Positions 2,021 through 24,251 of a stretch of DNA of 31,843 nt are shown in pieces. Under the pieces are notes generated by a model. It did no database searches. It was not told where the DNA came from and saw only the letters and a program-made list of their open reading frames with translations. Position 1 is the stretch's first letter. Each line of letters opens with the position of its first letter. The position numbers were made by a program, and so were the translations under genes. Source of the DNA: an uncultured Gammaproteobacteria bacterium. GTDB taxonomy: Bacteria; Patescibacteriota; Patescibacteriia; UBA2591; UBA6264. The stretch is taken from assembly GCA_964507075.1 (NCBI GenBank), contig CAZDOL010000007.1:1-31843 (forward strand), written 5' to 3'.

Positions 2021-2055
2021 CAAAACAAAAAACTGTTGAAGTCCAACCTCAACAG
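2021..2055 (-). terminator. Rho-independent terminator downstream of tRNA-Glu
   Basis: On the minus strand CTGTTGA-GGTTGGACT-TCAACAG (7-bp stem, 2033-2055) is followed by TTTTTTGTTTTG. Confidence 0.5.
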
Positions 2056-2113
2056 ACACAAATTTCGTTACAACATAATATAATGTTTCAATATTCCCAT
2101 GTTCTGTGCTGTA

Positions 2114-4214: not shown

Positions 4215-7154
4215 TTATTGACTCAGTGTTAAAATAATATTAATTCCATTTAGGGAAACCTCTTCTTGAATCAAAACCTTGCCTGGCGGTCCTTTGATTA
4301 TAATGTCTTTACTGCCTGTTTGAGATTTCAAAAATTCTTTTTTATTTTGAATCATCTTTTCTAAACCTTCCTTGGTTTCAGAACAATAAAGATTAACTAA
4401 ATCATCTTTTGTTAGTTGGGCTTTTTTGCGTAGAGAATTTACTGCCCTAACCAATTCCCGACAATTTCCCTCTTCTTTTAAAACAGGAGTTATCTCTGTA
4501 TTTAAATATATTTCTATATCTCCTTCTTTTATCTTCTCCCAATTATCTCCTTGGGGGAAATTTTCAATGGATTCAACTTCTTTGATATTTAATTCATCTT
4601 TAATCAACTCTATTAAATCAATTGGGAGTCTGACTCCTAAAACATTTAATTTACTTAAAGGTTGACGGACTTTTATTTTTGTTTGTGCCCTTAGGTTATG
4701 TCCTAATTCGCAAATCTTTCTGACTATTCGCATTTCAGATAACAATTTCTCATCAATTAAGCTTTCGTCAAATAATGGCCAACTTTGCAAATGAACAGAT
4801 TCTTGTTTTCCATCCACCTCTTGATATATATATTCAGCTAAAAATGGCATAAAGGGAGCCATTGTCCTACTTAGATGAAACAAGGTTCTCCTTAATGTTT
4901 TTAAAGCTTTTATTTTATCGTCCTGACCACCATCTCTAAATCTATTTCTTGACCTTCTAATATACCATGCAGATAAATCGTTAATAAAAATTGGTATCTC
5001 CCTAACTGCATTTAAGTCATAACTATCCATTTTCTGGGTAACACTTTTAACCAATAGATTAAGCCTACTTGTAATCCATTTATCAAGAACATTAGTGATG
5101 TCTTTATCTTTGTCTACATTTTCCACTTTAATATCTCCTCTAAACATTTGATAAAAGGTGTGAACATTTATCAAAGTAAGAAAAAATCTATATTGTTCTT
5201 TTAAATCTTTCTCTGAAAAACTCAAATCTTCAGCCTTCATTGCTGCCGAACTAGACAAATAGTACCTCATTGCATCAGCTCCATATTTTTCCATTATTTC
5301 CATAGGGTCTGGATAATTATCCAAATGCTTTGACATTTTCTTCCCATCTTCTGCCAAAACCATCCCATTAGCTACAACATTTTTGAAACAATTAGTTTTT
5401 TTAAGAGCAGTCGCCAAAACATGAAGATAATAGAACCATGTTCTTGCCTGGTCAACTCCTTCCGCAATAAATTGAGCTGGAAAATTCTTTTCAAACTTTT
5501 CTTTATTTTCAAATGGATAATGCATCTGAGCATAGGGCATTGAACCTGACTCAAACCAACAATCCAAAACATCCGGAATTCTTCTCATTATTCCATCGCA
5601 CTTCTCGCATTTAAAAGTAATCTTGTCTACAAAATGTTTATGCAAATCATCAATTTTTTCTCCAGAAACCTTTTCTAACCCTTGAACTGAACCAAAAACT
5701 CTTTTTTCCTCACATTTATCACAAACCCAAAGAGGTATAACAGAACCCCAAAATCTTTGTCTGGAAATTGACCAATCTCTAGCCCCTTCTAACCACTTGC
5801 CGAACCTGCCGTTTTTGATGTGACCAGGAATCCAATTGATTTCTTTAGCTGTTTCTATTGCCTGTTCCTTGATTTTAATTACATTAACAAACAAAGAAGA
5901 AGTGGCATAATTTAGTAAGGGTGAACCGCAACGCCAACAATGAGGATAAGAATGTTCGTATTCTTCTTTACTAAACAAAAAATTTTTCTCTTCTAAATAT
6001 TTAATTATTTTTTTGTCTGTTTGTTGAGAATCCTGTTTTGGCCGCACCTCTTGGCCTTTAAAATCTATAACATCATCGGTAAAATGTCCGTCCATCTTAA
6101 CGTGTTGGATAAATGGCAATTGTTTCTCATTTCCCAAACTCATATCATCTTCTCCAAAAGCGGGGGCAATATGAACAATGCCAGTGCCATCTTCTCCTGT
6201 AACAAAATCAGCTAATTGAATGGTGTATAAATTTTCTTTATTTTCTATATCTTTTTTGGAGTAGTAATTAAATAATGGTTTGTATTTTTTGCCTTCCAAT
6301 TCTTTGAAATTAACTTCTTTCAAAACCTTATACTTCCTGTATTTAAACACACTTTCTAAATTCCCTTCAATACATATAAACTTTTCTTTTCCTGATTCAA
6401 CCAAAACATATTTTAAATTTTCTCCCAAAGCTAAAGCAACATTGCCCGGCAAGGTCCATGGAGTGGTTGTCCAAGCTAACATATAAGTTCCTGGTTCGTC
6501 CTCTAACTCAAATTTTACAGTTACAGCTAAATCTTTAACATCTAAATATCCTTGACTTACTTCTGATTGAGAAAGGGTTGTTTCGCATCTTGGGCAAATA
6601 TGCATTGATTTATAACTTTCATAAATTAATCCTTTGTCCCACAATTCTTTAAATACCCACCAGATACTTTCCATATAATCTTTGTCCATTGTCTTGTAAT
6701 CATTATCCATATCCACCCAACGGCCAAAACGATGAATAATTTTTCTCCATTCTTCTGCATACACAAGAACTTTGCTCCGACAGGTTTCATTAAACTTATG
6801 AATACCCAATTCTTCAATCTGTTTTTTATTTTTTATTTTCATCTCTTCTTCAACAATATTCTCAACTGGTAAACCATGACAATCCCATCCCCATTTTCTT
6901 TCAACATGATATCCTTTCATTGTCCAATAACGAGGAACAATATCTTTCATTAAACCAGCGACCAAATGTCCATAATGAGGAGTGCCAGTAGCAAAAGGAG
7001 GGCCATCATAAAAAACAAAATCCTTGTCCGCCGTAGCTTTAGCGAAGGAGGAGCCCTGAGGAGATTTTTTTCTCAAAGATTTTTCAAAAGTCTTGTCTTT
7101 ATCCCAAAACTTTAATATTTCTTTTTCTTTTTCGGCAAAATTAAATTGAGGCAT
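4215..7154 (-). CDS. ileS: Isoleucyl-tRNA synthetase (type 2, eukaryote-like)
   Basis: 979 aa; PPFATGTPHYGH (HIGH), KMSKHL (KMSKS), CP1 editing region and Zn-finger cysteines. Confidence 0.95.
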   Translation of the reverse strand: MPQFNFAEKEKEILKFWDKDKTFEKSLRKKSPQGSSFAKATADKDFVFYDGPPFATGTPHYGHLVAGLMKDIVPRYWTMKGYHVERKWGWDCHGLPVENIVEEEMKIKNKKQIEELGIHKFNETCRSKVLVYAEEWRKIIHRFGRWVDMDNDYKTMDKDYMESIWWVFKELWDKGLIYESYKSMHICPRCETTLSQSEVSQGYLDVKDLAVTVKFELEDEPGTYMLAWTTTPWTLPGNVALALGENLKYVLVESGKEKFICIEGNLESVFKYRKYKVLKEVNFKELEGKKYKPLFNYYSKKDIENKENLYTIQLADFVTGEDGTGIVHIAPAFGEDDMSLGNEKQLPFIQHVKMDGHFTDDVIDFKGQEVRPKQDSQQTDKKIIKYLEEKNFLFSKEEYEHSYPHCWRCGSPLLNYATSSLFVNVIKIKEQAIETAKEINWIPGHIKNGRFGKWLEGARDWSISRQRFWGSVIPLWVCDKCEEKRVFGSVQGLEKVSGEKIDDLHKHFVDKITFKCEKCDGIMRRIPDVLDCWFESGSMPYAQMHYPFENKEKFEKNFPAQFIAEGVDQARTWFYYLHVLATALKKTNCFKNVVANGMVLAEDGKKMSKHLDNYPDPMEIMEKYGADAMRYYLSSSAAMKAEDLSFSEKDLKEQYRFFLTLINVHTFYQMFRGDIKVENVDKDKDITNVLDKWITSRLNLLVKSVTQKMDSYDLNAVREIPIFINDLSAWYIRRSRNRFRDGGQDDKIKALKTLRRTLFHLSRTMAPFMPFLAEYIYQEVDGKQESVHLQSWPLFDESLIDEKLLSEMRIVRKICELGHNLRAQTKIKVRQPLSKLNVLGVRLPIDLIELIKDELNIKEVESIENFPQGDNWEKIKEGDIEIYLNTEITPVLKEEGNCRELVRAVNSLRKKAQLTKDDLVNLYCSETKEGLEKMIQNKKEFLKSQTGSKDIIIKGPPGKVLIQEEVSLNGINIILTLSQ
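7027..7052 (-). repeat. GC-rich hairpin repeat (minimal form) embedded in-frame in ileS
   Basis: TCCGCCGTAGCTTTAGCGAAGGAGGA is 25/26 identical, by my manual comparison, to the intergenic copy at 16363-16388. It encodes GSSFAKATA just before the conserved FVFYDGPPFATG block. Confidence 0.7.
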
Positions 7155-11309: not shown

Positions 11310-11411
11310 AATTTAATTTTAATTACAAATTTTTAAATCGGTACTCTAAGACTACCAAAAACTACACTAAACGTGATGTCGCACTAAGCGCGATATCAAA
11401 CACGCTGAGCG

Positions 11412-15846: not shown

Positions 15847-15874
15847 TTGACATTCTGATTAAAAACTGTATCCT
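15847..15874 (+). promoter_or_regulatory. Candidate promoter of ssrA
   Basis: TTGACA (15847-15852) directly after the fusA stop, 16-nt spacer, TATCCT (15869-15874). It would leave a short precursor leader before GGGG at 15888. Confidence 0.35.
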
Positions 15875-15887
15875 TAATGTGTTATAA

Positions 15888-16273
15888 GGGGATGTCTTAT
15901 AATCGACGCGAGAAAATTGCGACGAAAACAAGCCTTTCGTACACCTTAGAGACGCGTTAGTTCTCTAAAACAAAATAAATGGCAAACTAATTGCTAAAGT
16001 AAGGCAAATGCTAAGCATTCCAGCCTTCAATTTTGCTAGAGCTTAAAAAAGCAACAGCCATCAAATTTTTGAATCCTGCTAAAAAATTTGATGTATTATC
16101 AGCGGGAAAACGACCAATCTGTCGCCCGAATAGAATGGTTGTATTAAATCGGGCTGTGATTAAAGGAATTTGTTCAATTTTAATCTTTAATCAAGAAATC
16201 AATTGAACTATAAAGGTAGAAATTTTTGTCTTAATTCCTGCGAACGCGGGGGAAGTACCCGCCATCTCCACCA
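15888..16273 (+). ncRNA. ssrA: tmRNA (SsrA), one-piece
   Basis: 5' GGGGATG pairs with 3' CATCTCC (G3-U70), followed by ACCA. The TCGACG motif sits near the 5' end, and the T-arm is GCGGG/CCCGC. An internal frame (at most 15981-16046) ends ...CCA GCC TTC AAT TTT GCT AGA GCT TAA (PAFNFARA*). The stop lies in a GCTT-AAAA-AAGC hairpin. 386 nt. Confidence 0.85.
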
Positions 16274-16319
16274 TCCTTCGCTCCTCGCTCATGCTCGGAG
16301 CTTCGGATGGCAAGGCCAC
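16274..16319 (+). repeat. GC-rich nested-hairpin repeat (trailer copy a), starting right after the tmRNA CCA
   Basis: TCCTTCGCTCCTCGCTCATGCTCGGAGCTTCGGATGGCAAGGCCAC matches the reverse complement of 24119-24164 at 42 of 46 positions by my manual alignment. Confidence 0.8.
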
Positions 16320-16362
16320 TTATTATTAATCGATCGCTTTTGATGACACAAAACGAAGGATG

Positions 16363-16388
16363 TCCTCCGTAGCTTTAGCGAAGGAGGA
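16363..16388 (-). repeat. GC-rich hairpin repeat (minimal form), upstream of the GIY-YIG gene
   Basis: TCCTCCGTAGCTTTAGCGAAGGAGGA with basal stem TCCTCC/GGAGGA. Its GAAGGAGG half is the only SD-like sequence near the 16403 ATG. Confidence 0.7.
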
Positions 16389-16402
16389 ATAACTCCCATT
16401 CT

Positions 16403-16651
16403 ATGCATTATGTTTACATTCTCCAAGGCACCAAAAACAATAGTCCATATACGGGAATTACAACTAACCTAAAACAAAGAATCAAGAATCACAACTCTGG
16501 ACAAGTCAAATCTACCTCAAGTAAAAAACCGTACAAATTAATTTGGTATTGCGCATTTGCTAGTAAAATTAATGCGTATAAATTTGAAAAGTATCTTAAA
16601 AGTGGATCGGGGGTGGCTTTCTCTAAAAAACATTTAAATTTAAAAAATTGA
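16403..16651 (+). CDS. Small GIY-YIG family nuclease
   Basis: 82 aa; YVYIL...YTGITTNLKQRIKNHNSG...KLIWY...A.KFEKYLK matches the GIY-YIG core (GIY ... YIG ... R ... H/N ... E). Confidence 0.8.
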   Translation: MHYVYILQGTKNNSPYTGITTNLKQRIKNHNSGQVKSTSSKKPYKLIWYCAFASKINAYKFEKYLKSGSGVAFSKKHLNLKN

Positions 16652-19857: not shown

Positions 19858-19929
19858 TTCTAAAAATCGTCCCGTAGTCCCCCACAATACAAAAAACCGC
19901 TTTAGGGCGGTATTTTTTTATACAAAAAT
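19858..19929 (+). repeat. 3' end module copy B (contains an intrinsic terminator)
   Basis: TTCTAAAAATCGTCCCGTAGTCCCCCACAATACAAAAAACCGCTTTAGGGCGGTATTTTTTTATACAAAAAT. Terminator ACCGC-TTTAGG-GCGGT plus T7 lies at 19896-19919. Confidence 0.65.
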
Positions 19930-19976
19930 ATTGAGGAACCGAGTTCCTCAATATTAACCGAGTTCCTCAATATTAA
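19927..19976. repeat. 13-bp-stem palindrome plus tandem 19-nt direct repeat at the tRNA-Arg 3' flank
   Basis: AATATTGAGGAAC-CGA-GTTCCTCAATATT (19927-19955). ACCGAGTTCCTCAATATTA occurs twice in tandem (19938-19956 and 19957-19975). Confidence 0.75.
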
Positions 19977-19978
19977 AA

Positions 19979-20050
19979 TACCCCTACCAGGAATCGAACC
20001 TGGGTCTTATCCTCCGCAAGGATACACTCTATCCATTGAGCTACAGGGGC
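19979..20050 (-). tRNA. tRNA-Arg (anticodon read as GCG), no encoded CCA
   Basis: Minus strand GCCCCTG TA GCTC AATGGATA GAGT G TATCC TTGCGGA GGATA AGAC CCAGG TTCGATT CCTGG TAGGGGT A. G-U pairs at 1-72 and 7-66; 4-nt variable loop. Confidence 0.8.
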
Positions 20051-20166
20051 ACAACTTCGCTTTGATTTACATCAAAGCTACGATGCGCAAGTAGACGCTT
20101 TAATATTGATGCTTGTCCTTCCGGAGCTCAAATGCAAATTTGAGCGCAGGAGGAAGCTACAGGGGC
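20051..20166. repeat. 104-nt double-hairpin insert flanked by a 12-nt direct repeat of the tRNA-Arg 5' end
   Basis: AGCTACAGGGGC occurs at 20039-20050 (tRNA positions 1-12) and again at 20155-20166. The 104 nt between hold two inverted units of the CCTTCGC...GCTWCGG family. Their apical hairpins are CTTTGAT-TTAC-ATCAAAG and GCTCAAAT-GCAA-ATTTGAGC. Confidence 0.7.
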
Positions 20167-20172
20167 AAAAGT

Positions 20173-24118: not shown

Positions 24119-24164
24119 GTGGCTTTGCCGTCCGAAGCTCCGAGCGTTAGCGAGGAGCGAAGGA
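24119..24164 (-). repeat. GC-rich nested-hairpin repeat (trailer copy b), starting right after the tRNA-Ser(UGA) CCA
   Basis: Minus strand TCCTTCGCTCCTCGCTAACGCTCGGAGCTTCGGACGGCAAAGCCAC. Near-identical to 16274-16319. Confidence 0.8.
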
Positions 24165-24251
24165 TGGCGGAGAGGGTGGGATTCGAACCCACATGTCCTT
24201 GCGGACGCCGCTTTTCAAGAGCGGTGGAATGAACCGTTATCCGACCTCTCC
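24165..24251 (-). tRNA. tRNA-Ser (anticodon UGA), CCA encoded
   Basis: Minus strand GGAGAGG TC GGATAACGGTTCATTCC A CCGCT CTTGAAA AGCGG CGTCCGCAAGGACAT GTGGG TTCGAAT CCCAC CCTCTCC G CCA. Long variable arm. Two TATAAT boxes lie directly upstream (TGTATAATCGTATAATG). Confidence 0.9.

Follow-up and report, generated by a model that had tools for sequence, protein, structure and literature searches.

The window analysed here, a stretch of 31,843 nt, is one complete contig of the 613-kb, 30-contig genome of an ultra-small Patescibacteria bacterium. Its tmRNA gene, ahead of which lies a promoter-like site (15847-15874, 10/12 match), is separated from infC by a cassette of approximately 375 nt, which consists, in order, of a hairpin module (module 1), a spacer, a perfect inverted repeat, an inverted module core (module 2) and the gene of an 82-aa GIY-YIG nuclease (P0001), the stop codon of which overlaps the infC start at 16648 (Table 1). 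PF01541 covers residues 1-67 of the nuclease, and no further domain is present. The 9-bp inverted repeat (16272-16280/16354-16362), to which the terminal CA of the tmRNA itself belongs, closes a unit of ~90 nt, and the spacer between module 1 and its right arm is AT-rich. Read in reverse complement, module 2 has the module-1 core CC-TWC-GC...GC-TWC-GG, and the cassette therefore opens with an inverted doublet.

Table 1. Features of the tmRNA cassette and of related elements in the window; G001 and G002 are genomes of the same genus.
Feature	Position	Strand	Evidence
tmRNA gene, insertion target	15888-16273	+	Rfam RF00023, 85.3 bits
Module 1, main hairpin	16274-16307	+	Fold; model R1, 57.8 bits; covariation in 50 copies
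Module 1 tail: TGG, CAAG, second CCA; mini-hairpin	16308-16319	+	Fold; flank-triplet counts
Inverted-repeat right arm, perfect 9 bp with 16272-16280	16354-16362	+	Pairs in MFE fold of 16262-16400
Module 2, inverted module-1 core, CC-GTA-GC...GC-GAA-GG	16363-16388	+	Directly 5' of nuclease gene
GIY-YIG nuclease gene, 82 aa, single domain	16403-16651	+	PF01541, E 7.5e-18
Solo module 1, no nuclease gene; after tRNA-Ser(UGA) CCA, upstream of tyrS	24119-24164	-	R1, 56.4 bits
tRNA-Ser(UGA) gene, insertion target	24165-24251	-	ARAGORN; Rfam
104-nt doublet without ORF, abutting tRNA-Arg(GCG) 5' end	20051-20154	-	nhmmer, five genome copies
Duplicate of tRNA-Arg(GCG) positions 1-12	20155-20166	-	Single copy in G002
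tRNA-Arg(GCG) gene, complete	19978-20050	-	ARAGORN; Rfam
Minimal 30-nt unit (TCC...CAAG), in frame in ileS, +10 residues	7023-7052	-	Absent from G002 and G001 ileS

The 46 nt directly after the CCA of the tmRNA (16274-16319, plus strand) recur directly after the CCA of tRNA-Ser(UGA) (24164-24119, minus strand), where tyrS follows after a further 35 nt. The two trailers are identical at 42 of 46 positions, with mismatches at 16290, 16292, 16308 and 16314, and their starts agree with the gene ends assigned by Rfam (tmRNA) and ARAGORN (tRNA-Ser), confirming the near-identical pair described in the initial annotation. A 34-nt pattern with three apical-loop bases left free matched only these two sites, against a mean of 0.00 matches in 100 dinucleotide shuffles. 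The predicted fold is the one previously drawn: a 3-bp outer stem, a 3x3 TTC/TTC internal loop, a 5-bp stem, an apical part and a 4-bp mini-hairpin, with free energies of -17.0 and -15.5 kcal/mol for the two trailers and z-scores (-1.9 and -2.2) that are modest when taken alone. Three of the four substitutions lie in loops, as had been noted, two of them in the apical loop (16290 and 16292) and one in the mini-loop (16314); the fourth, 16308, is at the closing pair of the mini-hairpin. The TGG that opens the tail is the complement of the CCA of the tRNA.

Rfam gathering-score matches in the region were to tRNA and tmRNA only. A small ribozyme or other known RNA motif was considered and rejected, because Rfam gave no match up to E = 1 in 16260-16410 or 20040-20170. 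Nor was any terminator-like site found on the plus strand between 15700 and 16800; a T run is missing after the hairpin, where the sequence reads CTTATTATT.

The trailer is one module of a family of palindromic repeats with the core CC-TWC-G...C-TWC-GG and a CAAG tail, of which this genome holds at least nine copies. The tmRNA cassette is the only member with a gene; the gene-less members comprise the solo copy at tRNA-Ser(UGA), five doublets, a copy 3' of tRNA-Arg(CCU) and the 30-nt unit in ileS. All five of the 104-nt doublets, which are 86-93% identical within the genome and match themselves in reverse complement (nhmmer), abut the 5' end of a tRNA-Arg or tRNA-Lys gene, and each is preceded by a duplicate of the first 12 nt of its own tRNA. 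The doublet in the window, made up of a module-1-type hairpin and an inverted module with a GTAA loop, is the divergent third unit of the initial annotation; that unit is real, running from 20154 to 20051 on the minus strand after the 12-nt copy of the tRNA-Arg(GCG) 5' end at 20166-20155. The copy 3' of tRNA-Arg(CCU) is bordered on each side by the last 22 nt of that tRNA. The unit in ileS (4215-7154) adds the residues SSFAKATADK to IleRS, just ahead of the conserved FVFYDGPP...HYGH part. The occurrence of imperfect palindromes both as inverted doublets and as solo copies is a feature shared with REP/REPIN families, and the 9-bp inverted repeat, together with a module core common to the gene-bearing cassette, the doublets and the solo units, is one shared with a MITE that has an autonomous partner. 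We also observed that tRNA-Arg(CCU) (G000:C2:21213-21560) has family elements at both ends, its 5' doublet containing an internal partial duplication.

A covariance model (R1) was built from eight module copies. In its own genome R1 recovered both trailers and one doublet, and it matched in 16 of the 55 genomes of the order, with no match in the same-genus genomes G001 and G002. Covariation was assessed on 50 copies, some belonging to the order and others to nuclease loci in other phyla. The proposed partners pair in 91.3% of cells, compared with 77.6% in shuffles and 30-55% in slid-partner controls, the alignment having been fitted to the model, a favourable bias that the slid controls carry equally. 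Double-change cells numbered 81, compared with 26 in shuffles, and changes on both sides occurred at 10 of the 12 pairs; such covariation is expected of any palindrome, whether it acts as DNA or as RNA. The helices, for which the initial annotation had proposed a test of this kind, are thus supported, and so is its suggestion of selection on structure. The core positions C3, T4, C6 and G7 and their mirror positions are invariant across the 50 copies, and the internal-loop letters and closing pairs are invariant or nearly so, with apical inserts ranging from 1 to 75 nt. Mismatches within the module are equally of the G-T (seven) and A-C (six) type, so that they single out neither a folding strand nor folding as DNA over folding as RNA.

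The corresponding sites in relatives were then compared. In most of 38 relatives the tmRNA gene is followed by a short AT-rich spacer and then infC, and the tmRNA-infC spacer of both G001 and G002 contains neither the trailer nor the nuclease gene; in a genome of another family (G024), a solo module with a compensated stem is found at the same tmRNA CCA. At the tRNA-Ser site, G002 has a homologous, decayed module 1 that has lost its stems, together with an inverted module and no ORF, and in G001 neither the tRNA nor the trailer is present at that place. The G002 ortholog of tRNA-Arg(GCG) has the same upstream gene, a 27-nt spacer and a single 12-mer, with no element. The doublet is present in five copies here and in one in G002, at tRNA-Lys(UUU), which is orthologous to a copy here; none was found in G001. 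In ileS, G002 lacks exactly the 30 nt of the unit, the IleRS N-terminus being 96% identical, and G001 is also without it. Comparison of these orthologous sites shows that the module behaves as inserted DNA, missing from the same sites in same-genus genomes. All module copies in G002 are either shared or decayed, and no intact nuclease homologue was found in that genome (best match E 0.02); the nuclease-bearing genome therefore has at least three new copies and the nuclease-less sister only old ones, which is a single contrast and not a statistic.

By the same comparison, the 12-nt tRNA-Arg fragment is a target duplication left by the insertion, and not the relic of a gene implied by the earlier description of an 'orphan tRNA-Arg 5' fragment', because G002 has the same tRNA without element or fragment. 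A split or permuted tRNA, or an intron, was also considered for this fragment and rejected, since the downstream tRNA is complete and G002 lacks both fragment and element. In G017, a module doublet lies inside the 16S rRNA gene (L134:1441-1544), inverted and ~70 nt from the 5' end of the gene. Two further observations concern gene ends. The tRNA-Arg(GCG) gene of the window has no encoded CCA, and its 94%-identical ortholog in G002 (L222:1501-1575) encodes one; in L101 (G010), the tmRNA gene is followed by a different hairpin insert and then by an apparent second copy of the last bases of the tmRNA.

The immediate flanks of the 50 copies were also compared. For 30 of the 50, the triplet that follows the 3' stem is complementary to the one preceding the module, against a mean of 9.4 and a maximum of 18 in 2000 shuffles, examples being CCA/TGG, CCC/GGG and CAC/GTG, and the upstream triplet recurs 7-8 nt later in 25 of 50 (shuffled mean 13.7, maximum 22, 1000 shuffles). 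The recurring or complementary triplet can be read in two ways, either as a 3-nt target duplication or as a triplet carried by the element for pairing with the target, in the manner of IS200/IS605. Duplications are 3 nt long at CCA, 12 nt at the 5' ends of five tRNA genes and 22 nt at the 3' end of another, with none visible at the ileS insertion, and these lengths do not fit one fixed staggered cut. The 12- and 22-nt duplications each reach exactly to the end of the tRNA; a possible cause is cleavage at the base of the acceptor-stem hairpin in the tRNA gene.

P0001 retains all the residues that are invariant in 77 relatives (Y3, Y5, Y16, G18, R26, H30 and E62). Among solved structures the UPF0213 protein BH0048 (1zg2, E 1.4e-9) is its best relative, with Slx1 next, and searches with PADLOC and NCBIfam returned nothing informative on the nuclease. 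A search for related loci yielded 80, from Patescibacteria, Proteobacteria, Bacteroidota, Verrucomicrobiota, Omnitrophota and others, and for 44 of these the ORF lies no more than 450 nt downstream of the end of a tRNA or tmRNA gene on the same strand. The ratio of same to opposite orientation of the tRNA/tmRNA neighbour was 47:1 upstream and 9:0 downstream. In the relatives the spacer has the order module (after CCA), tail, long-range complement, inverted module and ATG; the long-range inverted repeat is likewise present in their tRNA-nuclease spacers, and minus-strand R1 matches are found at the place of module 2 in relatives too. The module thus sits at the ends of co-oriented tRNA and tmRNA genes.

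Six GIY-YIG paralogues are encoded in this genome, each beside a different hairpin family, and in a tree of 27 proteins the genes flanked by TWC/GWA hairpins group with P0001 (support 90/82). Taken with the conserved layout of the loci, this shows the module travelling with one clade of tiny GIY-YIG nucleases across phyla. The closest homologue of P0001 (67% identity), also located at a tmRNA gene, lies outside this order, compared with a best identity of about 53% or less within it, which suggests transfer of the gene. Gene-less copies predominate: all 28 of the module copies inspected in the order were without a GIY-YIG gene within 700 nt. A comparison of nuclease presence with R1 matches over the 55 genomes is limited by E-values that fail to separate paralogous GIY-YIG clades.

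Several other repeats were observed at tRNA ends. L084, one of the GIY-YIG paralogues, begins 11 nt beyond the CCA of tRNA-Gly(tcc), with a contig break in between (G000:C3:40-114 and G000:C22:1-330), and is followed by a second copy of the last 13 nt of that tRNA without CCA and then by a T run, an arrangement that resembles a displaced original gene end. Short palindromes of another family (CGCTCAGCG and ACGCTTAGCGT types) begin directly after the CCA of tRNA-Pro(ggg) (~11340-11411, minus strand) and, on G000:C3, of tRNA-Ser(cga) and tRNA-Pro(tgg). At least four tRNA genes, among them tRNA-Glu(ttc) (~2050-2113, minus strand) and, on G000:C1, C3 and C21, tRNA-Leu and tRNA-Tyr genes, have tandem GAACATT-like heptamers behind their CCA, and these heptamers precede tRNA-Arg(tct) in the opposite sense. 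Finally, a direct repeat of ~21 nt ending in a GGAACTCGGTTCC-type hairpin lies downstream of tRNA-Arg(GCG) (19925-19975, minus strand), and this hairpin recurs after tRNA-Pro(tgg) on C3.

We consider it probable that the trailer is the left-end hairpin module of a family of small mobile palindromic elements tied to a mini GIY-YIG nuclease. As judged from the comparison with G001 and G002, the element has most likely been copied recently to tRNA gene ends and into the gene of an essential enzyme. On single-stranded DNA the nuclease would recognise the hairpin in its folded form, by the signature of the unpaired TWC/TWC loop, and would nick it at the foot, which is the CCA junction; host repair or replication could then copy the element. 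Pairing of the post-stem TGG with the flanking CCA may help to select the site. A point against this scheme is that GIY-YIG enzymes act by hydrolysis of DNA and are not known to join strands. Of the three roles offered in the initial annotation (a 3' processing or stability signal, an att-like recombination site and a nuclease recognition site), the last fits best, and it gains from the shared distribution of module and nuclease clade across phyla; the recognition step itself is proposed by extension from that distribution.

A role at the RNA level, possibly besides mobility, is the alternative that survives best, although we regard it as unlikely. The hairpin would here act as a 3' trailer that steers or blocks the processing of tRNA and tmRNA precursors, or would shield the 5' end of the nuclease mRNA. 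The strict co-orientation of module and adjacent tRNA (47:1) fits such a role too, and no promoter- or terminator-like site was found on the plus strand between the tmRNA and the nuclease ORF. Ten lake-water DNA runs contain the stretch, as do four lake metatranscriptome runs, the latter in the form of contigs from libraries that may hold DNA. In three of the metatranscriptome runs the contig is unbroken from the tmRNA through the cassette to infC, and in the fourth a tmRNA contig of depth 205 ends at 16270, with a cassette contig of depth 4; the depths of neighbouring genes in these runs are 2-8. These contigs are compatible with low-level read-through and with removal of the trailer from the mature tmRNA, but they may derive in part from DNA and give no transcript ends. 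For this last reason we take neither the uncovered interval 16271-16346 in run X14 nor the loose ends at 24162-24164, where tRNA-Ser sequences of other organisms join, as a sign of a transcript end.

The distribution of the module tells against such a role, and against a 3' processing or stability signal as a host function. Inspection of the sequence after the tRNA and tmRNA genes, as proposed in the initial annotation, showed that the trailer is carried by only 2 of the 44 tRNA-like genes of this genome (43 tRNA genes and the tmRNA gene), and among relatives the module recurs at the tmRNA of G024 and is absent from those of G001 and G002, where the gene works without it. In addition, the tRNA-Ser copy is decaying in G002, its stems having been lost, and a module that lies in frame in IleRS or within a 16S rRNA gene cannot be a tRNA trailer.

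Very improbable, in our judgement, is a passive duplication, in which the stretch was copied once between similar gene ends (CTCC-R-CCA) by gene conversion and there is no element, enzyme or function to be explained. The two target ends do agree in seven of their last eight bases, and the GCCAC that closes the shared block at both sites fits the tRNA-Ser end (GCCA) better than that of the tmRNA (ACCA). Against this stand the at least nine family copies in this genome, the three sites that are empty in the sister genome, and the modules with compensated stems at tRNA and tmRNA CCA ends in other families and phyla; the cross-phylum copies with their compensatory changes appear largely to refute it already. 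Least probable of all is the attL/attR scar of an integrase-driven island or phage, since, even though tmRNA and tRNA 3' ends are classic integration sites and some family members duplicate 12 or 22 nt of a tRNA end, the whole insert is ~375 nt with the GIY-YIG nuclease as its sole gene, infC follows directly as in relatives and the repeat, unlike an att site, does not copy the tRNA 3' end; the att-like site of the initial annotation holds loosely, as the end of an inserted element, but no integrase is involved.

Returning to the mobile element tied to the nuclease, the gene of the nuclease appears to lack a separate promoter and is probably expressed by read-through from that of the tRNA or tmRNA. 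A more far-reaching reading, which we offer tentatively and hold to be somewhat doubtful as a whole, is that these loci represent an undescribed class of mobile elements spanning several phyla, in which a tiny GIY-YIG nuclease, sister to those of the NTS-flanked genes discussed below, would mobilise modules that home to tRNA and tmRNA ends by pairing of their triplet with CCA or another flank, rebuild the gene end that they interrupt, and could shrink to 30-nt units able to enter essential proteins, in frame, and rRNA. In the literature on GIY-YIG and tRNA genes in Patescibacteria, on YhbQ and on palindromes downstream of tRNA genes, we found no description of a link between such a hairpin element and tRNA ends.

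That three sites are empty in a same-genus genome is clean comparative evidence of movement for hairpin repeats linked to a mini GIY-YIG nuclease, and the family points to a second nuclease clade with a different and very simply defined hairpin signature. It would explain the odd structured trailers, leaders and duplicated ends of many tRNA and tmRNA genes in Patescibacteria and other phyla. As ileS shows, such a unit can lengthen an essential tRNA synthetase by ten residues, and gene callers and tRNA annotation should expect inserts of this kind. Nucleases able to cleave single-stranded DNA at a short programmable hairpin are also sought as tools.

Among known systems, SegB, encoded among the clustered tRNA genes of phage T4, and other free-standing GIY-YIG homing endonucleases share with the present element a small GIY-YIG gene beside tRNA genes that spreads as selfish DNA. 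The Seg proteins, however, have a DNA-binding domain, cut the double-stranded DNA of genomes that lack their gene, and come without hairpin repeats or non-autonomous copies.

The REP/REPIN elements and their RAYT (Y1/HUH) transposases combine short imperfect palindromes, an inverted doublet as the mobile unit and scattered non-autonomous copies. The present family resembles them in its imperfect palindromes, its inverted doublet, its one repeat-flanked enzyme gene and its scattered gene-less copies, but the flanked enzyme is a GIY-YIG hydrolase rather than an HUH tyrosine transposase, and the copies are aimed at tRNA gene ends and can lie in frame in proteins. The IS200/IS605 elements, which move by 'peel and paste', have hairpin ends, the transposase TnpA and a short element sequence complementary to the flank. 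Hairpin ends, strand-specific orientation, the absence of a fixed long target duplication and a short flank-complementary sequence beside the hairpin (here TGG with CCA) are common to both; in contrast, the present element has no TnpA gene, and its guide-like triplet pairing is suggested by covariation only.

In the rRNA genes of CPR bacteria, GIY-YIG ORFs have been described in inserts that are not introns (Tsurumaki et al. 2024, PMC11270868). The hosts there are likewise Patescibacteria, the small GIY-YIG genes likewise lie in inserts other than group I or group II introns, and there are short ORF-less inserts at stem-loops of structured RNA genes, to be compared with the doublet inside the 16S rRNA gene of G017; that work covers rRNA genes only and describes neither palindromic ends nor tRNA or tmRNA targets (PMC11270868).

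The closest parallel is with Ssn, single-domain GIY-YIG enzymes of ~94 aa (CDD cd10448) that act on single-stranded DNA, cutting it next to NTS/SRM hairpins of their own (Chenal et al. 2025, PMC11893778). The IS-like layout of repeat, gene and repeat has been pointed out for the Ssn genes, the mobility of their repeats is a hypothesis only, and tRNA is not mentioned (PMC11893778). Neither our genome nor the hairpins of 86 related loci gave a match to the published SRM search pattern, the sole NTS-like matches at these loci being in L055, 1.2 kb away. Five genomes with genes of the P0001 clade also carry 30-208 NTS-like repeats (control 0), and the NTS-flanked genes in them encode proteins of ~95-107 aa that are ~33% identical to P0001. 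With NTS-flanked genes from these five other genomes as stand-ins for Ssn, the 27-protein tree placed NTS-flanked L192 and L199 across a branch of length 1.25 with 99/98 support; as tested in this way, P0001 falls outside the NTS-flanked (presumed Ssn) clade. The genome of L055 (G059, Omnitrophota) has 208 NTS-like repeats, mostly in inverted pairs ~50 nt apart, and an NTS-flanked 96-aa GIY-YIG gene (e.g. L199) besides its tRNA-linked genes of the P0001 clade.

The present system differs from Ssn in this separate clade (99/98, ~33% identity), in the position of its repeats at tRNA and tmRNA ends, in having few copies per genome rather than hundreds, and in that its mobility is shown by empty sites. 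The likenesses are nevertheless close: P0001 is also a single-domain GIY-YIG protein of fewer than 100 residues, an imperfect hairpin repeat particular to it is found in copies next to its gene, other copies, solo or as inverted doublets, lie elsewhere in the genome, and paralogues within one genome each have their own type of hairpin. By analogy, the nuclease and its module would be expected to work as Ssn does with its SRM repeats.
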